From NCBI GenBank assembly GCA_000091205.1, contig AP006493.2: 64,000 bases of DNA, one strand, 5' to 3'. Every line of letters begins with the position of its first letter. The first letter of the stretch is position 1. The DNA is from Cyanidioschyzon merolae. Lineage: Eukaryota. A model generated the notes under the pieces. It saw nothing but the letters and a program-made list of their open reading frames with translations. It was not told the origin of the DNA and searched no databases. This document shows, piece after piece, positions 1,676 through 63,895 of this stretch. Made by a program: the position numbers and the translations under genes.

Positions 1676-2869
1676 CTATCCCCCGGCAGGATTCGGGAAC
1701 GCCGCCCGCGGAGTGCCTTCATCTATGTCTGATTTCGGCGTGTACGCTTCTGTTGAGGCAGCACCGGAGCTCGTTCGCACGGCGTCGGCTGCAAAAGGGT
1801 GCATGCTCATGATGAGAAGGTCCAGCTCCGCCAAACCGTGTATCCTTTGAGCGTGGAATAGCAGATTAGCCTTTTGTGCGAAAGGACGGCCGCAATCCAA
1901 AACCGGGCAACGGAAGCGTATTTCCCTCAGATGCACGGCTCTGTAGTGCGTGTTTGCGTTTCCTTTCTGAGAGAATCTTCTACCACAGCCCGGATACGGG
2001 CAGCCGAATGGCTTTTCTCGCTCGTGAACTGTTCTTATGTGAACCTGCAAATTCCCACTCAGGGTAAAACGCCGCCCGCAGCCCGAAAAAGGACACACGT
2101 GCTTTCCAAACTGGCCCCGCTGCGCACCGGGTGGCAAATTCGAGCACCTTCGTTTGCGGCGAGGCTGCAGGGAAGTCCCCGAGTGATAACGCTGATCCAA
2201 TGTTATTAGACGTGCGGCTTCTGAATCGATCCTGCCGAGCCACGTTCCGGTCGGAGCTGACCGTGGCGTTGCCGGAAAGCGACTCAGTGGCGAGCTTTCG
2301 GAGATGCTTGACATTACATTTCCACTGGATTCATCGCACTCGAGAGCAAACAGCTCCGCTCCCGAGACGGCCAGCGCATCGGTCGTTCGACTTGTCGATG
2401 GCGCACTGTGGGGAATGCTATCTTGTGAAGGCGAGTCTAATGTCGATGCGCCAGGTGCGGTGCACACCGAACTGATGTCCTCTGACGCGCATCGACTTAG
2501 AGGTCGACTCGTTTCAAAGGAGGGCGACCACAAGTTCGCGACCGGAAAGGCTGGAGCCGAAAGCGGCGCGCACGGGATCCCCGTCTCGTGTAGCAGAGCT
2601 TGGGTCCCGCTGGTCACGGAGACCGACAGCTCTCTCCAGGGAGGCCTCCTAGTGCTCTTTCCGACATTCGCTTGCCTAACTGTACCTTTCGGGGGTACAT
2701 TCTGTTCATGATCCTCAAGGAGATCAGCTATGTGCACGCGTAGATCGTGTTCTGAGAAAGCCGCGCGAAAGGGTTCCGCTCCAATGCCGCTCGCACTCGG
2801 CTGTTCAGAAGACGTTCCTCGAGCGTCGCTGGGCGTCACCGCTTCCATCCCCTGAGCTGTGTCACTCAC
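1676..2869 (-). CDS. C2H2 zinc-finger protein (three tandem fingers in C-terminal half)
   Basis: Classical C-x2-4-C...H-x3-5-H spacing three times in a row: 'HVCPFSGCGRRFTLSGNLQVHIRTVH', 'FGCPYPGCGRRFSQKGNANTHYRAVH', 'FRCPVLDCGRPFAQKANLLFHAQRIH'. The true start may be an internal Met. Confidence 0.5.
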   Translation of the reverse strand: MSDTAQGMEAVTPSDARGTSSEQPSASGIGAEPFRAAFSEHDLRVHIADLLEDHEQNVPPKGTVRQANVGKSTRRPPWRELSVSVTSGTQALLHETGIPCAPLSAPAFPVANLWSPSFETSRPLSRCASEDISSVCTAPGASTLDSPSQDSIPHSAPSTSRTTDALAVSGAELFALECDESSGNVMSSISESSPLSRFPATPRSAPTGTWLGRIDSEAARLITLDQRYHSGTSLQPRRKRRCSNLPPGAQRGQFGKHVCPFSGCGRRFTLSGNLQVHIRTVHEREKPFGCPYPGCGRRFSQKGNANTHYRAVHLREIRFRCPVLDCGRPFAQKANLLFHAQRIHGLAELDLLIMSMHPFAADAVRTSSGAASTEAYTPKSDIDEGTPRAAFPNPAGG

Positions 2870-4417
2870 TGAACAGGTGGCCCACGAAACGTGGAAGCGT
2901 TAAAAAGCAAAGATATCAACTAAACCAATGATAAACACAGAAAAGTCAAAGAAGACGCTTACAGCCCCTTCAAGCGGGACTGCCTCCGCGATTCAGAGCA
3001 CAGCAAGTCTCAAACCTGCTACGTCCTTCGAACCTTCCTTCTCGGGGCACCTCGTGCTTCTACCAACCCTCAACGGTCTTTTAAGACGCACGAAGCGCAC
3101 CAGGAGCTCGAATCTCTAACGAACAGAGCCCGAAAATGGATCTTTATCGTGTGTCTCTTTCAGGCGCCGCCTGCATCTGTGCGGGTTGTCATGTCGACCA
3201 GGCCGATTTCATGGCGGATGGCAGGGGCGCGGCTGCGAATCGAACGGAGGGCTGTGCGAAGCGCAGGCCCCGACCTATTTCTACGGCTGCGCATATGGAC
3301 ACGTGTCAGGGAAAACGATCTCCGCGCGTGCACTCCAATTCTGGCAGGCTGGTGCGTCACGGTCACATTGCTGCTCCACGCTCATGTCGATCGCGCTGCG
3401 TTCGCTGCTGCTTGACGTGACGCGGTATCGGTCGTGAGGGACAGATGGAGACGCAGAAGTAGGCACTGTGCACGAGATGCTCCACAGGTGCGGGACACGT
3501 TTAGATGTAACTCGAGACCCTAATTGGGAAATATATCAAACAAGAGATTGTGTGTCCCAAGTGCAAAGGCGCCCAAGACTCTCACGTTCGAGTGCGAGAT
3601 TTTCTCGTCGCTGAGAAACACTAGGTTTGCACCCAGAGGAGACGAGTAAAACTGTGTGCTTTGAGACGTGTAGCTTGGTTCCTGTGGAAGCCTTGTCTAT
3701 AAGACTTTGACATACGCATGCGACCGCGCCATTTTTCCCGGTCGTTGACTGACGAAGCTCGACAGTTCGACTTCCTTACCTGTAGAAAATTAACGACTCA
3801 CTCTGCACCTGCGCACTGCTGTACGTCATGGTTGCGCAGGCTGTACCGCGCATGAATACCAATTAAGCAAATAGGTAAGCTCGCTTCAACTATTACTGTA
3901 GTTGGAGGATGGCAACGGTTTCGATGAAAAGCAGAGCACAGGCCTGTGGGCTATGCCCTCGGGAGCTGTAGGACTTCGATCTGCAGCCGTGGAAAAGTAA
4001 AGCGGGGCACTGTGCTGCATGCTTTTGTTCATGTCTACTGATATTCTTTCCGAATTGTTTTCAGAGTTACTGCGTCGACATTCAAAGTGCAGCCGCAAGA
4101 GCACACGGCTCTGTACGGAGGTTTGCGATGATCCGGCGTCGTTTCGAGTCGCTCATTCAACTCGCTGTCGTTGGAACTCGTTCCGCCACCGGAATCACGA
4201 TGCTTTGCGACGCTCTCGAACGAAGATTCGTAAAATAACCGATCTGGTTATCCTGTTTGTACGCACAAGCCGTATCTTCACAGTTCCTTAATTGGAGCAT
4301 GCTCATATTACACGTTCTTCAAATTTTCAATCTTTCTAGTTAAAGGCAACTCGTGGGCGCAGCAATGCGATCCTCTGAATATACGAGGAAAACTACCAAT
4401 CGTCTTTGACGACTTTT

Positions 4418-27323: not shown

Positions 27324-28348
27324 TTATTTCATAAACAGCATATGCATGACAGTGGAGCGCAAAAATATCCGCGAACATGTAAGGTACTTATTTACCCGCG
27401 CACAGACGCCTCCCAGCCTCTTTTGACAGGCCAATTGCTGTCGTTTCAGCTCCTTTTTGTACAATTTGAGTCTGAGAAGCTGGTCGAAAAGGCTGGACCG
27501 CATCAGATCCGCGAGTCTCGGCATCAGCATCGCACATCGTCTGATATCGATGGCGGCGTTCAAGTCTCGGTTCAGAGACTCCATGATTTTATTGACGCTG
27601 GTTGAACTCACCAATGCAATGATTGCTGCGGCCTGTGCACTTTGCGAGACTGCAGTCACGTTATCGGCTCGTCGGGCAGATTCCTTTCCCAGACGATAGC
27701 CACTGTTCGATTGCATCCTCTTCGTCACTCGCGATTTATCGCTGGATGGTCGGCGACGAGAGAATTTTTTGTCGAAATCCGAGATACCGGGCCTCCAGGA
27801 CCCTCAACTTCGATGCCCATAGGCGTCCACTGGATTTTTTATTTCTTCAAAATGAACGCATTTGTTGATTCCCTCAGGTGCGGAGCTTCGCGGAGCAAGA
27901 AGGACCCTCTGAAGAGAGATGCAATGTGCCCTGGTCTGTCAAAGAGTGCTCAAAGCTTCAGCGATTCGCTCAGTTGAACGATCAGTATGTTTTACGATAG
28001 AAAACACTCTTTCGATACGGTTGAATCACGGTGGGCATGTAGGAATGAAAAGCAGCTCTATCCCTAGAGAATGAGCAAACGCACGAGCGCAATCGGACTG
28101 GTCGAGTGCCACATAGTCCAGTTGAAGGATGTCTCCAGATTTCACGTGAAAAGTTCTCAATGATTCGTCAAAGTGGTTTGTGCTGCTGTACGAGCGCTCT
28201 CTACGAGCGAAACTGAGTCCGTTACTTGAATCCAGTGCAGCTCGAACAGAGGACGATGTCGTCGTCCTTTTCGAGTTCGCTCATACACACAACGGGCGCC
28301 CAGCTCCGCGAGTGCCCATATGCGCTCCGACCGTTTCATCCGGAGCAT
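27324..28348 (-). pseudogene. degenerate TnpB/Fanzor-like copy (RuvC-II-like block at about 28.2 kb, RuvC-III block at about 27.5 kb)
   Basis: 28157..28348(-) 'ERIWALAELGARCVYERTRKG' aligns with 'ADRLLAEAINRTKTLVVEFGNG' and 'ADRVLAEDIAQRKRVITHETE' of other copies. 27324..27728(-) 'SVNKIMESLNRDLNAAIDIRRCAML' closely matches the RuvC-III 'HRDLHAAINIRKCAVL' of the 39.5-41.6 kb copy. Confidence 0.4.
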
Positions 28349-34124: not shown

Positions 34125-34754
34125 TCAAAGCTCCCGCTCTGCGTCTTGTCGCATCATGTCTAGCGAAATTTCCAGGTTCCGAAGGAGATCCTCTCTTCGC
34201 ATACCAAACTGCGCAAGCCATGCATCCAACTGCTTCAGGTAAAGCTGTGCCTGAAAGTCAGTACTGAGTTCAAAACGTTTCAGAAATACTTTCCAGCGAT
34301 CGAAGACGGACTCCATCTGCGCGATATACGCCAGCTTCCCTTCCCGGTCAAAAAGCTTATATTTCTGTCCAAGCCGCAGTAGCTCTGCGTGGTCACGCAT
34401 GAGCCGGTTGCCTTCTTCGAGCACCACGGGTGAGCCGAAAATCCCGTCTCCACCGGGGCCCGCGCTGCGCCCACTCGCGAACGCATCGCCGCCTCTACCC
34501 AAAAAACCTCCGTCCGAGTCGTTACCGGAACCGTCATCGTCACGCTTACCACGCGAGCGCGGCGACCGGTACTGCCCACGAACGTGTGATAAAGCGGCCG
34601 GCAGGCGGTGCGAATTCTTACTTCGATGCCAGCAGTGGCGGCGGTGCCTGCGCAGCCAAGTCGTTGCTCCAGTACTCTCAGGTGCCACAGCAGCCCGAAC
34701 TGACGAGTTGGAAACAGGAAAAATCGACCAAGCCAGAGTCTCAGCCATAAGCAC
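34125..34754 (-). CDS. hypothetical protein (Gly/Asp-rich linker then a helical, conserved-looking C-terminal domain)
   Basis: 209-aa ORF. The C-terminal part 'LMRDHAELLRLGQKYKLFDREGKLAYIAQMESVFDRWKVFLKRFELSTDFQAQLYLKQLDAWLAQFGM' has non-repetitive, protein-like composition. No family recognised. Confidence 0.2.
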   Translation of the reverse strand: MLMAETLAWSIFPVSNSSVRAAVAPESTGATTWLRRHRRHCWHRSKNSHRLPAALSHVRGQYRSPRSRGKRDDDGSGNDSDGGFLGRGGDAFASGRSAGPGGDGIFGSPVVLEEGNRLMRDHAELLRLGQKYKLFDREGKLAYIAQMESVFDRWKVFLKRFELSTDFQAQLYLKQLDAWLAQFGMRREDLLRNLEISLDMMRQDAEREL

Positions 34755-38150: not shown

Positions 38151-39495
38151 TAAAGATTTGTATGCACGGCTTTTCGGATCTACAGCGCTGTGAGTAGGTG
38201 ACTGGGTTTGGTGGCAGCTTTCTTGAGTTCCCGCTGGGGGTGCCCTTTCGGGGGATGACTTGTGATGGGCTCGTTTGGGAGTTCTTCTTTCTATTCTTCT
38301 GTTATTTTTTCTTCTTCTTCTTCGGGCTCTTTCCTGAGCTACTTTCTCTGGTTACTCTTCTGGCATGTGGATCATGATGCCATTGTGTCTTTTCTTCTGT
38401 ATCCCGTTGGGCCTTTTTCGCTAATATAGATTCCTCGACTTGTATCAGTTTTTCATTACTGTACTGGTAATTCGATATCTCGTCGTCTAGTATCGAGGCT
38501 ATCCCACAAATATTCCATGATGCGAAACCTATCGAGTCGTAGCGCGTAAGGGAATAAGAATAGCGCTGCGGTACTCCAGAGATACGTTGTCGATTTAGAT
38601 GCACCCTCCACGGGGTGTGTGAACGCACATGCCACCAGCGCCTCCTGCATTCCAGTCGTTCACTGAGTGTCTGCTGCAGCGCTAGCGTAGAATCAGATGT
38701 ACATTAGTCAAGGTCGATTCAAATGCGACCTTTATCTTGCCGGACGTGTGAAGCTACCCGCAACCACAGGGGATACTCTATGAACCACCCTTTCAGCGGC
38801 TTCGTATCCGCTCCCCAAATACACAGGCGGGCAAGTCGCTTACTCCACTTTCGACAGCGAACATGCTGCCAGCCGTCTTCAAAAGTAGCCGCCGAAATTG
38901 TTTCCAAAGTTGAGGTAGCTACCCAAGGTAGGAGGTAAAACTGAGCCCGAGTTCGAGGATGGATCCAGGATTTGCGCCCGAACCTGCAGCGTTGTTTCGG
39001 GAGTGGCGGATGACTACCCAGAACTCTCGTCATCATTCTCTGCTGCTATTGCCGCCGCCATCCGTTCGATGCGGTCAAGGTCCCTGGAGAGGGCTTCCTT
39101 CCTCGTCGCCCGAGCACCCCGCGTTAACCCACTTTCAGAGTTTCTCCGCAAAAACCGGACTTCTTAGGCGCGCATACTGTATGGGGCTTTTAAGATAGTT
39201 GTTCTTTAATAAATAATTTGTTACTAGTTTGCATCACGCTCGGTGAGCGCACCTCGGAGATCCGGCAGGCATGAGACGCTACGCGTATGTCGCCGTTGAA
39301 GGGGAACGCGATCCTGATCTCTAGTATGTAGATCTAATGTAAAAGTTGTATTTTCGTTAACTTCATAGCCAAGTACAGTTTTTCAGTTCGTTTTTGTTTC
39401 AAACTTCATACAAGTCTAGTCAAGTGTTTTTTTGCAGTATATAACAGAAGCGTTCACAGAGCGTTGTTTTCCAAAAAAACTAAAAAAGGAAAGTT

Positions 39496-41570
39496 ATGAA
39501 AACGCAAGTCGACGATCCTGGAGGCCCAGGGTCGCCGGCTGCCAGAAAAAAACAAAAAACAGTACCGAGTCCAGAAGAAAAGAAAGAGAAGAAGAACCGA
39601 AACGGGGACCCAACGTCGAAGGCGACAAGAAAGACGACTTTACGACGAGATGGTGGTGAAAACCTTTCTTCTTGGACATATCAAGGATCCGTACAGGGAA
39701 AAGTTGCGAGACGTTATCGAAATACGTGTCGACTCGTACTCCAAGAGTATTGTCAAGGCGTCGTCAGGACTGATGCATTTGGCGAGGGAGATGTATCGCG
39801 ACGTGACGGACATGGAAACGGTCGAGATTCCAGGCGAGTTCTTCGACAAGGCCTTTATTCGTCACGTGATGCATGGCACAGAGGAAGCGCGGAAGGAAAA
39901 ATGAGCTAGTGCATGCCCACCACGAAAACTTCGCGGAATTCTGCTTCGAGAGTAATCGATACAGCGGTGACGGAAATATTTACACATACGGGGTAATGAA
40001 GTACATTACGAACCTGAAGAACCATTTGACAGAGAACCTCGAACGTTTTATGATACGCGCCGTAGTTGCACTCTACCCGGGCCTCTCTCGCAACGGAAAA
40101 TGGGCGATTATCAATGGCATCAAGAACGATCGATAGTATGAAGATGAGGTCGAATTCGTCGACAAGAAGGCGTCACGCAGGAGCACGAATGAGGATTCCG
40201 TCATCCGCGCGGTTATACAAGAGCACCGTGCGGTACTGGGGTTGGCAAATCCAACAGACAAGATATCAGAGTTGAAAAAAGATAAGGAAAAATACTATCG
40301 CCTCGTCCTGCGCTATTTCGTGTTTCTGGATCGAGAGCTCGAACGCAAGGCGGAAATGAAGCTGAATGTAGAGACAAATGAAGAGTGGGAGAGACGGAAG
40401 GCTTTCCTAATGAGTAAGTGCCTCAGCGTCGTTCCGTTATGCAATATCCAGTCACATTTCGTGATTATCGACTCCACAGTCCTTCATGGCATAATGAGGG
40501 ACATCAGTCCGGTGTTCAATGTTAGCAGGGAGGACTTCACCGGCGAAAATCGGGAGACGTACTAGATGAGTATCTTCGATTTCAAACGTATCAAAGTCAG
40601 CAGGCAAAAGTTGTTCACTAGGATGATCGAAACCGATGGAGTAGCCATGTGTGTACACGATCGGCGGTTGAAGAAAGATCGTCCAGTTCCGCCCTCGGCT
40701 GCGCCCATCACGAAGGATGAAGAAAAGGAACAGGCGGATCCTGTGACGCAGGAGGTGCAGGACAACGACTTTGTTGTTTGCGCGGACCCTGGGAATACGA
40801 ATATCATAACCATTGCAGCACCGAAGCGTGCAGAAGATGGTACTGACGGCAACTTGCGTCAGAAAGACATGCGTCTTTTGAGGTTCTCGAGAGCGAGATA
40901 CTATCGAGAATCCGGTATAATGAATGCGAGGAAGAGAATTGCTGCATGGAATTCAGGAATGAAGGATCACCTGGAAGCTTTGAGCGAGGTGACGAGCCGA
41001 GGAGCGGACTTTGAAGCTTTTCGGAAATTCATGGAAGTTCGCATTGCGCATTGGGATGCGCTATGGGAGGAGTATACCAAGCCCCGGTGGGCTCGTTTGC
41101 GAATGAATCTATACGGTGGGAAGCAGCGGGCGTTCGCGAATTTTTTCAATGAGTTGAGTGCCCTCAAGGAGGATGAAAGTCAGAGGCCCGTAGTAGCATA
41201 CGGAGCAGGGCGCTGGAAGACCCAAAAAGGGACTACTCCAGCTCCAAAGACGAGGGTGTACAAGGAGTGTGCACGGCGTTTTGTTACATTACCTGTAGAT
41301 GAGTTCCGAACGTCCCATACACACCACGAGCTGGATTGTACACTTCAGAGGGTCGAAATGGAAAAGTGCCAGAGGAGCACTGAGGAAATACCAAAGTACG
41401 GTGCGCTGACGGAGGAGCAAATGTAAAGGAGGGCGAAAGTTCGTGGACTACTCGCACTGGTGAGTACAACTCCCAACGGCACGAAACGTATGGAGTTTGT
41501 GCATCGTGACTTACATGCCGCTATCAATATCAGGAAATGTGCGGTGCTGGAGAAAAGACCTCCAGAGTAG
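39496..41570 (+). pseudogene. Fanzor-type (eukaryotic TnpB-like) RuvC nuclease gene, most complete copy; reading frame interrupted by 2 frameshifts and 3 in-frame stops (or unrecognised introns)
   Basis: 39496.. 'MKTQVDDPGGPGSPAARKKQKTVPSPEEKKEKKNRNG' (NLS-like). From 39650 the frame changes twice. The final frame then carries '[18 protein letters not shown]' (RuvC-I, GxDxG-like), 'QRPVVAYGAGRWKTQKG' (RuvC-II region), 'VDEFRTSHTHHELDC...EKCQR' (degenerate Zn finger) and 'MEFVHRDLHAAINIRKCAVL' (RuvC-III). In-frame stops lie at TAG 40134-40136, TAG 40563-40565 and TAA 41424-41426. The last is supported by the ORF track (40242..40565 and 40566..41426 are contiguous, same frame). Confidence 0.65.
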
Positions 41571-41781
41571 ACACGAGAGAGTTTTGTGGGACACCCTCTC
41601 AAAGTGGAACTATATGAGAAGAAGTTGAAACCAGTAGTAGGTGGCCGGTCCAAAACGACGGGGAGGCCTCTGCACGTCAATTGGAGACTTCTTGTCCAGG
41701 GCGCGGTTGCTGCCACTACTGGACACCGCTGGCGTCGTTCGACTTTCGATCGGTGCGCAATCGCGGCAGCGTCTCGACAGT

Positions 41782-41795
41782 CGCGATGCATCGCG
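41782..41795. repeat. 14-bp perfect palindrome (cgcgatgcatcgcg) within GC-rich structured tail downstream of the Fanzor ORF
   Basis: Self-complementary when read directly. Embedded in 'cgcaatcgcggcagcgtctcgacagtcgcgatgcatcgcgtgctttcgattcgagg'. Confidence 0.8.
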
Positions 41796-41925
41796 TGCTT
41801 TCGATTCGAGGATGCCCGGTACCTGACCGGAGAGCACCATAGCAAAACGTTTCGACTGTTTATTCACCTTCCAGGCGTCTGGGTTTGTTCGTGTTTGCGA
41901 TAAATCTAGTGCGAAAAAAATAAAC

Positions 41926-42729
41926 ATGTCACCACAGGATACTTGCTGTCCGCCTGATAGCTGGCCCGCGCTCAAGGTCGACTACAAACCAAAGGGTAAG
42001 CTAGAGGATATCGGGAAAGGCCTGAAGGCGTACGTCGTTGGCAACGGGCCGCGAGCGGTTATCGCACTGAACGATGTATTCGGGATTGAAAGTGGACATT
42101 CAAAGGAAATTTGTGATGCAATTGCGGACAAGGGTTTCACTGTGGTCTTCCCGGACGTATTTCGGGGGAAACCGCTGCAAGTCAGCGATATGAGCAAGCT
42201 ATTCGACGAGCTCCCTGGCTGGGCGAAGCAGTTCGACTACGAGCCGGCTTTGCGTAAGGATGTGGTCGAGGTTATCTTGCCTTATCTCCACGATAAGCTT
42301 GGGTTCAAGAGCAACGACCAGATCGCGCTCGCAGGGTTTTGCTGGGGCGCGTTCATGTTATTCCACCTGGCAGGCGATACGAAGCTTCCCGGTGGGCCGT
42401 TTGCCTGCGGTGTCTCGTTCCATCCCAGTGTCCAGATTGAGGGCGTCTTTCAGCGGGATCCGCTGCAATTGATCGATCGGGCAACTTGCCCGCAGCTTCT
42501 GCTTCCCTCTGCAGGCGAGCCAGATTATATGAAGGAGGAAGGGGACGCGATCAAGAAGCTTCGAGCGAAGCCTTTCGGAGCTAGCTGCGGGGTGAAGACT
42601 TTCCCGAGCATGCAGCACGGCTGGGTGAACCGTGGAGACCGGAATGATCCGCAGGTTGTGAAGGAGGCTCAGGAAGCCCTTCAACTTGCAGTTGATTTCA
42701 TGATGCGACACACGAAGCCGAAAGCATGA
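41926..42729 (+). CDS. dienelactone hydrolase family protein (carboxymethylenebutenolidase-like alpha/beta hydrolase)
   Basis: 'AVIALNDVFGIESGHSKEICDAIADKGFTVVFPDVFRG' and nucleophile elbow 'LAGFCWGAFM' (G-x-C-x-G, DLH-type Cys nucleophile), with a downstream His in 'MQHGW'. 267 aa. Confidence 0.65.
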   Translation: MSPQDTCCPPDSWPALKVDYKPKGKLEDIGKGLKAYVVGNGPRAVIALNDVFGIESGHSKEICDAIADKGFTVVFPDVFRGKPLQVSDMSKLFDELPGWAKQFDYEPALRKDVVEVILPYLHDKLGFKSNDQIALAGFCWGAFMLFHLAGDTKLPGGPFACGVSFHPSVQIEGVFQRDPLQLIDRATCPQLLLPSAGEPDYMKEEGDAIKKLRAKPFGASCGVKTFPSMQHGWVNRGDRNDPQVVKEAQEALQLAVDFMMRHTKPKA

Positions 42730-49825: not shown

Positions 49826-51297
49826 TCACCACCCAGCGCTACAGCTTCTGGTGCACTGCAACAGCTTCTGGTGCACTGCAACAGCTTCTGGTGCACTGCA
49901 ACAGCTTCTGGTGCACTTCAACAGCTTCTGGTGCACTTCAACAGCTTCTGGTGCGAAGCGCAAGCACGAAGGGCGCTTGTACTGAGCGTTCGCCGGCGAT
50001 GATCCGGGGCGCCGGCACGCCGCATGAAGAGGTGCTCGGGTGGATCGCGGGATACTGCACCTATGGCTGGAGTGGGGATCTGACGCCCGTGAAAGAAATT
50101 GGACCTGCATAACCACCCAGACGTTATAGATGAGGACAACGATACATGTTTGATGGCCATGGAGGGTGAATATGTATGTATTTACGCGCAGAGGCCTCGC
50201 AGCCTTTTTTGACTGGCCGCCTTCGATCAGTTTCAGCTTCTCGTTGTATCCGATGAGCCTGAGAGGCTGCCCAACCAAGTCACATCGCGTCAGCTCTTGG
50301 GGTATCGTTTTCAGCACCGCACATAGCCTGATATTGAGTACAGCGTTAAAATCCCGGTTCACGAACATCTCGCGTTTATAGCCTCTGTTAGAACGCGCCA
50401 TTGCAAAGAAAGCTGGAACTCGTGCCCTCATTGCCATTTGGTGCTCAGTCAGCTCTCTGTCATTTTCTATCGCACAAGCGATCCACTGGCGTGTCTCTAT
50501 GCCGGCCGTCTGAAGTGCATATGCCCGCTCGTCCCAGAGATTTTTTAATCTTTGAAAGCGGCCGCACTTGTACACACCCATAGGTGAGGAACTTCTCGGA
50601 AAGACAAGGATTTACGCAGGATAGACGAAAGATGCTTCGGTGCTACCGTGGTGGAAGCTTTTGCGATTCGCCCATCGGAGCTATTATGATATGTGTCATG
50701 ATAGAAAACGCTCCTTCTATAGATATGGACCTCGGAGCCTAAGGAGGAATGAAAAGCAGCTCTGTCCCCGATAGAATCAGCAAAAGCTCGAAAGAGAATG
50801 TTGAAAGGCCACGGTGTCCAATAGATGCACGTCGCAAGAAGTCAGAGAACAATCTTCCATGATTCGACGAGTTGGGAGCTAATGTATACGCCCTCTCTAC
50901 GAGAGAAACTGAGGCCGACAAATGCATCTACCAAAGTTCGAACAGATGATGATGTCGGTGCTCTCTTCGAGTTCGTTGTACGTACAAAGAACTCCGTCTC
51001 TGCGAATACCCGTATACGCTTCGACCGTCTCATCCGAGGAAAGTATGATCGACTGAAAAAAAACAACCGACGTTCCTGTGCTTCATGCAGATCGCAACGT
51101 TCCAGGAACACTAGAGTTGCGATTTCGATGGACCATGACCGGGTGTGAACCAGGACTCTTTTTATGCGACTGTATCCGAGTGCTTTCAGGGCTGCACGAA
51201 CAAGATCTTGAGAATCAGAAATGCCACTGCTGGCTATGATCATCGCTTTCGCTTTTCTTACGATGATCAACGGGTCGTTTTCTACCATTGACCGCAA
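49826..51297 (-). pseudogene. degenerate TnpB/Fanzor-like copy (RuvC-II-like block at about 51.1 kb, zinc-finger remnant and RuvC-III block at about 50.3 kb)
   Basis: 50842..51297(-) 'VRAALKALGYSRIKRVLVHTRSWS' (RuvC-II-like). 49826..50581(-) 'GVYKCGRF...REMFVNRDFNAVLNIRLCAVLK' (RuvC-III). The antisense-frame signature 'STAHSLILSTALKSRFTNI' (50166..50381+) matches the antisense of the 39.5-41.6 kb copy ('STAHFLILIAACKSRCTN'). Confidence 0.4.
49841..49953. repeat. 20-bp minisatellite (acagcttctggtgcactgca) x about 5.5
   Basis: Units align exactly with the 10-base print groups, with the last copies c->t variants. Lies between the SerRS ORF and the TnpB-like remnant. Confidence 0.9.
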
Positions 51298-55480: not shown

Positions 55481-56916
55481 CAGGAGCCGATGCTGGCGAG
55501 CGGTCGCCTACAAACCGCCACACAGACGGCGTCGTTCCTCACCTCATCCTGCGTTGAAACATTTCGAGGCTTCTCCATCGCGCTTGCTGATGCCCTGTCC
55601 TTGGACAGCGCCGCCTAGCACAGCACGGGAGAAGCACCGGCGTACGCATCTGGGATTCGTGTTCAGCTGCTCTTTGTAGCAGTTTGTTTTCCGCGGCCTC
55701 ATCCAGCGGCATGCGGCCTGTCTCTGCGTCGCCAACAACCGTTTCTACGCCCACGGACACGTTTCGAAAACACGACTCGCTCGCGTCCCCGGCACCGAGA
55801 CAAGCCGGACGCCGTGAGCGATAGCGTAGCACCGTCCCCGAGAGACTCTCGCCTCCTTGATGGACGTCGCGTCCGAATGGTCGCTGAACCGTGATGCCTG
55901 GCTTCCCGGCATCTCGCGCTACTCCGTTTCCGTAAATAGCGCTGGGCAGCGCATACCAGACTGCCTCCGGGAACGTGAGCGCCCCCCGCTCCCTCAACAG
56001 TCTAGTGGATATGGTCCATGGTTACGAGACCAGGACCCATGAGGGTACCCGCTGAGACACTCTTTGTCGCGTGTGGCCTTCCTGGTGCGCGATGCCCGGT
56101 CTATCTACGCAGCAACCAGGACACATTCGTACTGCTCCGCAGCGGGCATCGGCCGAGCTCGTCCAAGCTCTTTCGCCTACGCGCTCGGAGCCCAAAGACG
56201 TTTACAGCGACCACGGACACTGACCGAATATCACTTTGGATGTGCTCTGTGAGACCCAGGCCTGCGTCTCGAAACAGGACTCGATTTACGCCCATAGAGA
56301 TAGATGAAGAGCAAGTATTCAGGGCGGGCGTGGATCCCGAGTTCGAGTGCGTCACGACTGCCGCCGTGCCTCCAGCCCAGCGGGGCAGAACCGGCGATCA
56401 GCACCGCGAGCAGGTGTCGCTGCTCAGCCTGCTCCACGACTCGGTACCAGCGGGCGTCGTGCACCACACACACACCAGGAGGCGTACCAGCAGGTGCAGT
56501 GACTACCTCAGGGGCTATCTCGGCAATCAAAGCATCCTATCGAGCAGCGGCGGATGCTTCGTGCAGTGCACTCAGAGCGCCTATACGAGCGTCCGAATGC
56601 AGCACGCGGACGCTTTTCGACACAGGTACATGACACCGTGCTGCTGTCGCCAATGGCATCGATTGTGCGGAGCCAAGGAGCGTACATCCACACCGCCTAG
56701 TTCGGTGCGTCGGAAACGGGAATCATCGACGAGGCGCGCGGTATGCCTGAAACCTCTGGTACGGGGTGTGCTTTTGGAGCACACGGGCTGCACTCGTGCT
56801 CCTTCGATGCGAGCGTGCGACAGGCACAAGAATCGATTCCGTACAGATCCCGTCGACGAATGCACGACAACATACAAGTATCACGAACTGGGGTTCAGCC
56901 TAATCCAGTTCGAGAA

Positions 56917-57100
56917 GAAAAAGAGCATGAAACAGAGATCAATGCACGGGATGGTGTACGGGACGCCGAACGAACGTCAGATGGCGACAGCGTCAAAGTT
57001 CGGTGACCTCGTAGAGCCTGAAACAGAGACCAATGCACCAGGTGGTGTACGGGACGCCGAACGAACGTCAGATGGCGACAGCGTCAAAGTTCGGTGACCT
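56917..57100. repeat. 87-bp tandem duplication (2 units) inside repeat copy 1
   Basis: 'atgcac..ggtgtacgggacgccgaacgaacgtcagatggcgacagcgtcaaagttcggtgacctcgt' occurs twice consecutively, giving duplicated ORF text 'GVRDAERTSDGDSVKVR'. Confidence 0.8.
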
Positions 57101-61289: not shown

Positions 61290-63895
61290 AGTTGTGCATC
61301 TGGATATAATTATACAACTATATCCTATTTGTTTCCGTTCGTGTTCGCACAGGCACTCAATGCCCGGCACGCACCGCGAACGACTGGAGCACTGTCGCGC
61401 ACAGCTCTGATGCTGGCAAAGATAGCTCGCGATACGCCGCATTATTTCTACAAAGCAGTCATTCTATGGTCACTACGACAATACACCGCCTGTATCGTTA
61501 TCGGTATCCTGAACATCGTGCGCCCGCACCAAAACACGTTCAACAATCTCTACGCAACTGCCTACTCGCCAAGCCATTCCAGCTTATGCCTTCTCGAAGG
61601 AATGCCGCGCAACAGGCGCCAGCATCTGAGGTTCGCGTACCGTTGCATCGCACGACGACAACGAGACATTGAGGGTCAGCGCAGAAGGCAGGTTTCTGTG
61701 CGAGACCGTCGCGCTGCGCACATGACGCCGTCAATGGCGTCCCTCAAGGAGCATACATATCCCAGAAGCGACAGGAGTTCACCTCGCTCGATTCCAGTCC
61801 ACGACGGGAGCACTGCTTGGCCTGTATGCAGGCAACCAAAACGTGGCAATCCGCTATTCGCAAGGAAGCGACATGCGCGTACGACAAAAAGAACAGCACC
61901 AACAACAACAGCGGCAGCAGCAGCAGCAGCCCAGGAGCCGATGCTGGCGAGCGGTCGCCTGCAAACCGCCACACAGACGGCGTCGTTCCTCACCTCATCC
62001 TGCGTTGAAACATTTCGAGGCTTCTCCATCGCGCTTGCTGATGCCCTGTCCTTGGACAGCGCCGCCTAGCATAGCACGGGAGAAGCACCGGCGTAGGCAT
62101 CTGGGATTCGTGTTCAGCTGCTCTTTGTAGCAGTTTGTTTTCCGCGGCCTCATCCAGCCGCATGCGGCCTGTCTCTGCGTCGCCAACAACCGTTTCTACG
62201 CCCACGGACACGTTTCGAAAACACGACTCGCTCGCGTCCCCGGCACCGAGACAAGCCGGACGCCGTGAGCCAGAGCGTAGCACCGTCCCCGAGAGACTCT
62301 CGCCTCCTTGATGGACGTCGCGTCCGAATGGTCGCTGAACCGTGATGCCTGGCTTCCCGGCATCTCGCGCTACTCCGTTTCCGTGAATAGCGCTGGGCAG
62401 CGCATACCAGACTGCCTCCGGGAACGTGAGCGCCCCCCGCTCCCTCAACAGTCTAGTGGATATGGTCCATGGTTACGAGACCAGGACCCATGAGGGTACC
62501 CGCTGAGACACTCTTTCTCGCGTGTGGCCTTCCTGGTGCGCGATGCCCGGTCTCTGTACGCAGCAACCAGGACACATTCGTACTGCTCCGCAGCGGGCAT
62601 CGGCCGAGCTCGTCCAAGCTCTTTCGCCTACGCGCTCGGAGCCCAAAGACGTTTACAGCGACCACGGACACTGACCGAATATCACTTTGGATGCGCTTTG
62701 TGAGACACAGGCCTGCGTCTCGAACCAGGACTCGATTTACGCCCATAGAGATAGATGAAGAGCAAGTATTCAGGGCGGGCGTGGATCCCGAGTTCGAGTG
62801 CGTCACGACCGCCGCCGTGCCTCCAGCCCAGTAGGGCAGAGCCAGCGATCAGCACCGCGAGCAGGTGTCGCTGCTCAGCTTGCTCCACGACTCGGTACCA
62901 GCGGGCGTCGTGCACCACACACACCAGGAGGCGTACCAGCAGGTGCAGTGACTACCTCAGGGGCTATCTCGGCAATCAAAGCATCCTATCGAGCAGCGGC
63001 GGATGCTTCGTGCAGTGCACTCAGAGCGCCTATACGAGCGTCCGAATGCAGCACGCGGACGCTTTTCGACACAGGTACATGACACCGTGCTGCTGTCGCC
63101 AATGGCATCGATTGTGCGGAGCCAAGGAGCGTACATCCACACCGCCTAGTTCGGTGCGTCGGAAAAGGGAATCATCGACGAGGCGCGCGGTATGCCTGAA
63201 ACCTCTGGTACGGGGTGTGCTTTTGGAGCACACGGGCTGCACTCGTGCTCCTTCGATGCGAGCGTGCGACAGGCACAAGAATCGATTCCGTACAGATCCC
63301 GTCGACGAATGCACGACAACATACAAGTATCACGAACTGGGGTTCAGCCTAATCTAGTTCGAGAAGAAAAAGAGCATGAAACAGAGATCAATGCACGGGA
63401 TGGTGTACGGGACGCCGAACGAACGTCAGATGGCGACAGCGTCAAAGTTCGGTGACCTCGTAGAGCCTGAAACAGAGACCAATGCACCAGGTGGTGTACG
63501 GGACGCCAAACGAACGTCAGATGGCGACAGCGTGTAAGGTCGGTGACCTCGTTTGGTGCGAATGTGCCAGCACCTAGGCGCCCAGGCTCTTTCCATACTG
63601 CGACTTGAGCCGCTCGATCAACACTCGAAAGCGAGTCTTGGTTTGAGTCGAGCGAGCTTTCGACGCAGTCGTTCAGTACTCAGTATCGGTGCGCTGCTGA
63701 AACGCTGATGACGCTCGATGGAAAACTCAGTGGTCAGCAGAGAGGGAGTTGGATTCCAGACTGGAGCAAGGCACTGGTATGGTGCGGTTGGGAAATCCCG
63801 CAATGCGAGAGCGGCTTGGGTATGCTCTGAAGACGATGTTCTTTGCCAACAAGCGAACGATAATGATGCTCCTTTATTTGATGTTCGGTTGTCTA
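61290..63895. repeat. 2.6-kb dispersed direct repeat, copy 2 (includes 87-bp tandem at about 63368-63550)
   Basis: Collinear with 54840..57450. Similarity begins at 'ataattatacaactatatcctatttgtttccg' and ends at 'taatgatgctcc(g/t)ttatt(c/t)gatgttcg', and flanks on both sides are unrelated. Confidence 0.85.

Follow-up and report, generated by a model that had tools for sequence, protein, structure and literature searches.

Between a decayed Fanzor1 gene and DLH in Cyanidioschyzon merolae: the end of a former coding sequence, a CMe-1A tail with two probable hairpins, and native DLH upstream DNA

In the passages of Bao & Jurka that describe it (2013, Mobile DNA 4:12; PMC3627910; Repbase), CMe-1A appears as the single Fanzor1 family of Cyanidioschyzon merolae, with ∼150 copies that are ∼80% identical to a consensus of ∼3 kb. 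According to the same passages, the copies have no terminal inverted repeats and share their 5′ module (TE-N2_CMe), and target-site duplications are left undetermined. The element that we analyzed lies in the same genome, within a stretch of 64,000 nucleotides (here referred to as the window), and agrees with this description as far as it goes: it is multicopy and ∼3 kb long, its copies are ∼20% divergent at the DNA level, it lacks terminal inverted repeats, its 5′ module is variable and of the kind shared as TE-N2_CMe, and it encodes a Fanzor1 protein. Nothing essential differs between the two. The window copy is a pseudogene, in which one frameshift and two premature stops are found and the family stop codon is missing.

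Two characterized Fanzor1 systems provide the closest models for the noncoding part of such an element. In the omegaRNAs of SpuFz1 and PpFz1, two stem-loops (SL1 and SL2) precede the guide (PMC11423790). The tail of CMe-1A has the same arrangement, with two predicted stem-loops and then a variable flank at the guide position, and its length of ∼60 nt compares with 75 nt in SpuFz1 from Spizellomyces punctatus; in addition, the structure of PpFz1 from Parasitella parasitica matches the CMe-1A protein family at an E value of 4e-18. Unlike in these two systems, the end of the CMe-1A element lacks an inverted repeat, the protein appears to have a degenerate C4 zinc finger in its TNB domain, and the covariation support for the tail is modest. 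CMe-1A also resembles the IS200/IS605 TnpB elements, given that the gene for the nuclease occupies the 3′ part of the element, that the 3′ end of its open reading frame (ORF) is overlapped or followed by a structured right end, and that the guide would come from the flank. It differs from them in being eukaryotic, in lacking TnpA, and in that no Rfam family was matched.

We focused on positions 41571 to 41925 of the window, which the initial annotation had described as a structured, GC-rich, noncoding tail downstream of a Fanzor stop codon. We are confident that this interval is instead composed of three pieces, namely, a decayed Fanzor1 coding end, the tail of a CMe-1A element, and native DNA upstream of the gene DLH. 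The features referred to below are as follows.

39231 to 41757, plus strand: core of the CMe-1A copy, common at the DNA level to most paralogs (blastn against 78 paralogous loci)
39560 to 41696, plus strand: Fanzor1 pseudogene frame (three-frame translation and alignment to relatives in which both stop positions are open)
41571 to 41696, plus strand: former coding sequence that corresponds to the final 42 codons in the Fanzor1 family (…TRESFVGHPLKVELYEKKLKPVVGGRSKTTGRPLHVNWRLLV; tblastn and protein alignment)
41697 to 41699, plus strand: position of the family stop codon; most paralogs have TAG, and strain 10D has CAG
41697 to ∼41757, plus strand: noncoding 3′ tail of CMe-1A, common to ∼60 paralogous copies
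41697 to 41718, plus strand: hairpin 1, which starts with the stop codon, consensus UAG-GGCGSG-NNN-SYCGCC-A-CUA, predicted in most copies
41731 to 41757, plus strand: hairpin 2, terminal, predicted with stems of 10 to 17 bp in paralogs
41756 to 41761, no strand: junction between transposon end and host DNA, with ∼5 nt of leeway; paralog homology stops here, and ortholog homology starts at 41762
∼41759 to 41925: single-copy native upstream region of DLH, without a match in the 78 paralogous loci
41762 to 41809, plus strand: ancestral DLH-upstream motif (CGCGGCAGCGTCTCGAC--AGTCGCGA…), from local alignments to the relatives L088 and L087
41782 to 41795, no strand: palindrome cgcgatgcatcgcg, of which only the left half, within TCGCGA, is kept in relatives
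41926 to 42729, plus strand: DLH gene, C. merolae BAM80483.1 / XP_005536519.1 (Pfam PF01738; exact-sequence look-up)

The interval does end, as had been noted, directly at the ATG of a 267-codon ORF (41926 to 42729; Pfam DLH, PF01738, E value of 2.8e-17), the product of which is identical to BAM80483.1 of C. merolae 10D by exact-sequence look-up. The two adjectives given to the interval as a whole did not hold. Its GC content is 53.0%, compared with 54.3% for the 64-kb window, and only the part from 41697 to 41831 is GC rich (63 to 66%); the RNA fold of 41571 to 41925 has a z-score of −1.31, which 12 of 100 shuffles equal or better. When 41000 to 42300 was scanned with Rfam at an E value of ≤10, the sole match was a spurious one to mir-1246 within the DLH gene.

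The first of the three pieces is the end of a gene. Three-frame translation of the Fanzor1 frame revealed a frameshift near 39900 and two in-frame stops, TAA at 41424 to 41426 and TAG at 41568 to 41570. The latter is the codon that had been taken for the Fanzor stop, and it is indeed in the Fanzor frame, but it is premature, with relatives reading past it. Protein similarity to the in-window copies at 50180 to 50452 (minus strand) and 27444 to 27614 (minus strand) crosses this TAG and reaches 41681 (tblastn). Among 240 homologous proteins retrieved by database search, the members that span this region have no stop at either position, and the 10 homologues that we aligned extend to …WRLL/WRRFV, with the C terminus …RRLHVSWRLL corresponding to window position 41696. 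Given that homology crosses the TAG and continues to 41681 to 41696, the first 126 nt of the supposed noncoding tail (41571 to 41696) are former coding sequence of the pseudogene. At the family stop codon itself the window copy is mutated to CAG, which, together with the frameshift and the two premature stops, leaves it without an intact ORF.

This stop codon is polymorphic. Strain 10D has CAG, whereas four environmental variants of the same locus (L004 to L007) have a T at 41697 and therefore retain TAG. One of these variants (L004) has a 286-amino-acid ORF piece divided into pieces of 99 and 168 amino acids. Taken together, the stop codon polymorphism and this ORF split indicate that decay of the pseudogene is ongoing and takes a different course from strain to strain.

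The frame was placed in Fanzor1 by its motifs and by profile comparison. It contains ADPGNTN, DEFRTS, and HRDLHAAINIR, which are kept in relatives, and the family motifs align with DPGRRD, DEFRTSS, and NRDQAAVLNFR of PpFz1 (RuvC-I, TS, and RuvC-III); the glutamate of RuvC-II was not located in this motif check of the family. A Pfam search of the window frame and its close homologues returned no match. The narrow profile of close homologues matched PDB entries only weakly, reaching no better than an E value of 0.29 to SpuFz1 (8GKH), and for this reason a profile of distant relatives was needed. Built from 31 members, this wider profile matched the Fanzor1 structure of P. parasitica (9CF0) with an E value of 4.2e-18 in two collinear stretches and that of Guillardia theta (9CER) with an E value of 1.8e-5, so that similarity to characterized Fanzor1 proteins extends across the WED/REC-RuvC region. 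The Fanzor-like protein family is large, with 1,464 representatives at an E value of ≤0.001. The degenerate appearance of the C4 zinc finger in this clade comes from the zinc-finger region (…TSYTHHELGCTLQRVEMEKCQRS…), which has two cysteines and two histidines instead of CxxC…CxxC, and in distant relatives the Pfam model Cas12f1-like_TNB scores below the family threshold (E values of 0.002 to 0.09).

The linker upstream of RuvC-I contains tandem repeats of ∼20 amino acids, KHEEKKEAxPxTQKVQDNDxVV, in a number of family members (P0002, P0003, P0005, P0007, and P0009; L011, 976 to 3309). Their number varies from 1 to more than 5, and the final unit is continuous with the catalytic motif, …DNDFVVGADPG.

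The window copy is a decayed member of CMe-1A, and comparison with other copies defines how far the element extends. From more than 338 relatives found in metagenome contigs we took 80 loci, 2 of which represent the same locus and 78 of which are paralogous; the paralogous copies are 79 to 87% identical at the DNA level. On the right side, the homology break lies between 41733 and 41755, and in all 78 paralogs homology is lost no later than 41753 to 41755 (blastn). The DNA beyond, 41759 to 41925, produced nothing other than random 12- to 13-mers in 410 kb of paralogous loci and has no match elsewhere in the window. The loss of homology in every paralog and the absence of matches to this DNA place the palindrome segment in single-copy sequence outside the element. 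On the left side, ∼20 copies break at 39230/39231, while some copies have homology that extends upstream at least as far as 38292. A comparison of the left end with the right end detected no terminal inverted repeats.

Upstream of 39231 the copies belong to three or more sequence classes that are unrelated to one another, in agreement with the modular 5′ organization (TE-N2_CMe) reported for CMe-1A. Position 39231 marks a module boundary only and not the left end of the element. Two further arrangements were seen among the loci. In L010 and L012 (∼2558 to 3449), two CMe-1A 3′ regions abut in inverted orientation, one on the plus strand (3022 to 3449) and the other on the minus strand (2962 to 2558). 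In L050 (541 to 2808), a Fanzor frame without a stop runs through the tail into a carboxyltransferase-like gene, and the resulting open frame of 756 codons is probably a chance read-through.

What lies to the right of the junction can be recognized in relatives that have no element at this place. In Cyanidiococcus yangmingshanensis (L087) and two further relatives (L088 and L089), a divergent DUF1825 gene is found 0.8 to 1.1 kb before DLH, and no CMe-1A was detected between the two genes in any of the three, either by blastn with seven copies or with the tail model, which gave only chance-level matches. Local alignment of 41762 to 41809 to the DLH upstream DNA scored 33 for L088 and 28 for L087, both above all 300 shuffles. 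The aligned block has the shared core TCTCGAC(GG)A-TCGCGA, and its distance to the DLH ATG is 164/154 nt in the window versus 146/150 nt in the relatives. Orthology at a similar distance from the ATG means that the palindrome is part of the ancestral host sequence and that the DLH-proximal DNA is not derived from the element, which gives no support to the earlier suggestion that DLH obtained its promoter or 5′ untranslated region from the element end. Thus, ∼165 nt next to the DLH ATG are outside the element, and their distal part, 41762 to 41809, is demonstrably host DNA. The exact empty site was not found in the relatives, whose intergenic DNA is too diverged for blastn and can be aligned only over the 41762-to-41809 block. 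The transposon landed ∼165 nt upstream of the DLH ATG, just beside the conserved motif.

The C. merolae orthologue of DUF1825 is located at ∼34128 to 34600. The DUF1825-DLH interval is therefore ∼7.2 kb long and filled with repeats, compared with 0.8 to 1.1 kb in the relatives. The extra DNA includes an RVT_1 retroelement fragment at ∼36.2 to 37.2 kb and the CMe-1A copy with its upstream module.

The conserved block may be a cis-regulatory element. Dimeric transcription factors often favor palindromic sites, and either the 14-bp palindrome or the TCGCGA core with the upstream TCTCGAC could be a transcription factor site in the DLH promoter. This would agree with the retention of TCTCGAC…TCGCGA ∼150 nt before the DLH ATG in three Cyanidiales genomes, where the remaining intergenic DNA is not alignable, and with the fact that TCGCGA is itself a palindrome. 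On the other hand, the comparison concerns one locus in three genomes, the composite motif occurs once in the window, the 14-bp symmetry is not conserved in the relatives, and TCGCGA is not enriched (32 sites in the window, compared with 36 ± 7 expected). We therefore consider a transcription factor site conceivable but rather unlikely. The same lack of enrichment in the window led us to reject TCGCGA as a general promoter word.

Between the former coding sequence and the host DNA lies the tail of the element, a conserved noncoding stretch of ∼60 nt that extends from the family stop (41697) to the end of homology (∼41757) in ∼60 aligned copies. Single-sequence folds of 62 distinct tail copies recurrently contained the two hairpins, beyond the second of which the copies are unrelated and often G/T rich. 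The subfamilies differ in stem sequence while the pairing is kept, as in CGUUCGA/UCGAACG versus CGUUCUA/UAGAACG and in AACGUUUUUC/GAAAAACGUU versus AACGUCUUUC/GAAAGACGUU. The mean z-score of the tail folds was −1.05, with 42% of the copies below −1.5, whereas independent flanks averaged 0.00 and the antisense strand averaged −0.49; these values come from related, nonindependent copies, and a coding control segment also averages −0.87. In the window copy, hairpin 2 is degraded and mismatched (GGCGTCGTTCGA-CTT-TCGATCGGTGCG, compared with the consensus …TCGAACGGCGTT), and the fold of its tail has a z-score of +0.8.

Many copies have a G/T-rich tract within 0 to 25 nt after hairpin 2, examples of which are GTTGTTGGTGCGTG, GGTGATGGTGTGTG, and (GGTGGC)n. 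In one subfamily, TGTTTCCAGGGG is common to the copies after hairpin 2, and divergence follows. These tracts may belong to the element itself or may reflect a target preference or a processing signal.

To search for further tails and to align them, we used a covariance model built from 16 tails of subfamily A, which recovered 78 tails in the loci. In the alignment based on this model, 77.5% of the cells are paired, compared with 36 to 61% with slid partners; 12 pairs are changed on both sides, a value reached by 7 of 500 shuffles, and the covariation score is 0.124 versus 0.097, which none of 500 shuffles reach. This support is partly circular, because the significant values come from an alignment that was fitted to the model. 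Without such fitting, 77% of the cells of hairpin 1 are paired (37 to 62% when slid) and its covariation is not significant, nor is that of subfamily A alone, and RNAalifold on a MAFFT alignment of the 62 tails recovers no more than a stem of 3 bp, since hairpin 2 is misaligned by indels. Covariation across the copies, which had been proposed as a check on the structure, is therefore significant on the model-fitted alignment and not on the unfitted ones (RNAalifold, subfamily A, and hairpin 1). We consider the two-hairpin structure of the tail to be probable on this modeling, the covariation support for it to be modest, and selection on the structure to be plausible, not proven. A long-range helix between AGUAGU (41633 to 41638) and ACUACU (41716 to 41721), suggested by a single-sequence fold, was discarded, as 88% of its cells pair by conservation, with no covariation.

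Within the window, the covariance model finds only 41692 to 41766. No tails were detected, even with the model run unfiltered, at the Fanzor-like fragments 27444 to 27614 (minus strand), 50180 to 50452 (minus strand), 56066 to 57061 (plus strand), and 62827 to 63462 (plus strand). The copy at 50180 loses homology at the equivalent of 41681. The fragments at 56066 to 57061 and 62827 to 63462 are 26 to 29% identical in amino acid sequence to the copy at 39560 to 41696 and have near-identical translated alignments to each other, which points to either a segmental duplication in this region or two copies that belong to an older family.

With regard to its function, the tail lies 3′ of the ORF on the same strand, reaches the right end of the element, and is followed by variable flanks that are unrelated among the copies. 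By analogy, its most likely role is that of the omegaRNA scaffold of the family, because its position, strand, scale, two-hairpin layout, and sharp transition from conserved to variable sequence match those of known Fanzor1 systems. The expectation of a multistem omegaRNA at the right end of the Fanzor element thus finds a counterpart in the hairpin tail at 41697 to ∼41757, common to ∼60 copies, but not in the palindrome segment that had been cited as evidence for it. The omegaRNA of active copies would continue into the flank and would direct the nuclease to the matching site without an element. The full proposal, in which the tail is the omegaRNA scaffold, 15 to 20 nt of flank act as the guide, and intact copies elsewhere in the genome of this thermo-acidophilic red alga form an active, compact, heat- and acid-adapted RNA-guided nuclease system, is tentative, and we stop just short of calling it probable. 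The tail of the window copy itself is likely inert, because it is degraded, with mismatches in hairpin 2, and the protein is dead.

A second possible role of the tail, in addition to that of omegaRNA or in place of it, is as a cis signal at the end of the transposon. In this case, the hairpins at 41697 to 41757 would act as single-stranded DNA signals for transposition, comparable to the subterminal hairpins of IS200/IS605 and the 3′ hairpins of Helitrons. Hairpin 2 occupies the extreme end of the element, with a stem that persists from one subfamily to another; terminal inverted repeats are lacking in CMe-1A, as expected of hairpin-dependent elements, and hairpin ends matter in such families according to the parts of Bao & Jurka that treat them (PMC3627910). 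However, no Y1 transposase was seen in the examined copies and no RepHel in the paralogous loci, and on inspection the copies end in …GGCGTT or …CGTTTGTT rather than in the CTRR of Helitrons. Furthermore, G-U wobbles are frequent on the sense strand, which folds better than the antisense strand; this fits an RNA or same-strand single-stranded DNA and not duplex symmetry. As an explanation of the tail, a function of the terminal hairpin in transposition at the DNA level is thus less likely than not but a serious alternative, and it may coexist with a role as omegaRNA.

It is improbable that the tail is merely a 3′ untranslated region or 3′-end processing signal of the Fanzor mRNA in which the hairpins are incidental. 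Such a function would agree with a tail that immediately follows the stop codon and with the G/T-rich tracts past hairpin 2, but neither conservation that stops exactly at the element end nor stems that stay paired despite sequence change between subfamilies would be expected of a plain untranslated region.

The palindrome segment, 41755 to 41830, had been the centerpiece of the initial annotation. cgcgatgcatcgcg is, as stated there, a perfect 14-bp palindrome (41782 to 41795). Five perfect 14-bp palindromes occur in the window, however, compared with 5.5 ± 2.1 in first-order Markov simulations, so that the presence of one does not exceed chance. Nor does the segment appear structured: its fold, computed one base off as 41756 to 41831, has a z-score of −0.69, with 43 of 200 shuffles as good, and the minus strand has a z-score of +0.76. 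The homologous tail anticipated downstream of other copies is missing, as the segment is absent from the 78 paralogous loci and from the rest of the window and hence lacks the conservation among copies up to the right end that an omegaRNA scaffold should have. At the position of the palindrome the relatives carry TCGCGACGCATCATTCCG and TCGCGACCCGAATTTCCG, which keep only its left half, and the 14-bp symmetry is for this reason specific to C. merolae; the palindrome is a species-specific, chance-level extension of the conserved TCGCGA core.

That this segment is an element-derived omegaRNA scaffold, with the element end supplying the promoter or 5′ untranslated region of DLH, is therefore highly improbable: it does lie 3′ of a Fanzor-like ORF, where known Fanzor1 omegaRNAs sit between the ORF and the right end, and it does hold a perfect palindrome, but nothing beyond ∼41757 is common to any of the 78 paralogous loci, the tail model stops at 41766, 41762 to 41809 is orthologous to DLH upstream DNA of element-free genomes, and both the palindrome count and the fold are unremarkable.

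Our analysis removes a false lead, in that the palindrome is chance-level host DNA rather than an RNA gene and the DLH-proximal DNA has no transposon origin. The novelty of the remainder is low, since CMe-1A is a published family and Fanzor1 elements can be expected to have an omegaRNA. The only addition is that the two-hairpin tail of CMe-1A has been mapped as a candidate omegaRNA; this tail and the sharp element end do not figure in the passages of Bao & Jurka that describe the family. For C. merolae, the locus shows a transposon cluster that has expanded a divergent promoter region from ∼1 to ∼7 kb without disrupting a conserved promoter-proximal motif. For the family, the tail represents a concrete omegaRNA candidate that could be tested in a genetically tractable extremophile alga.
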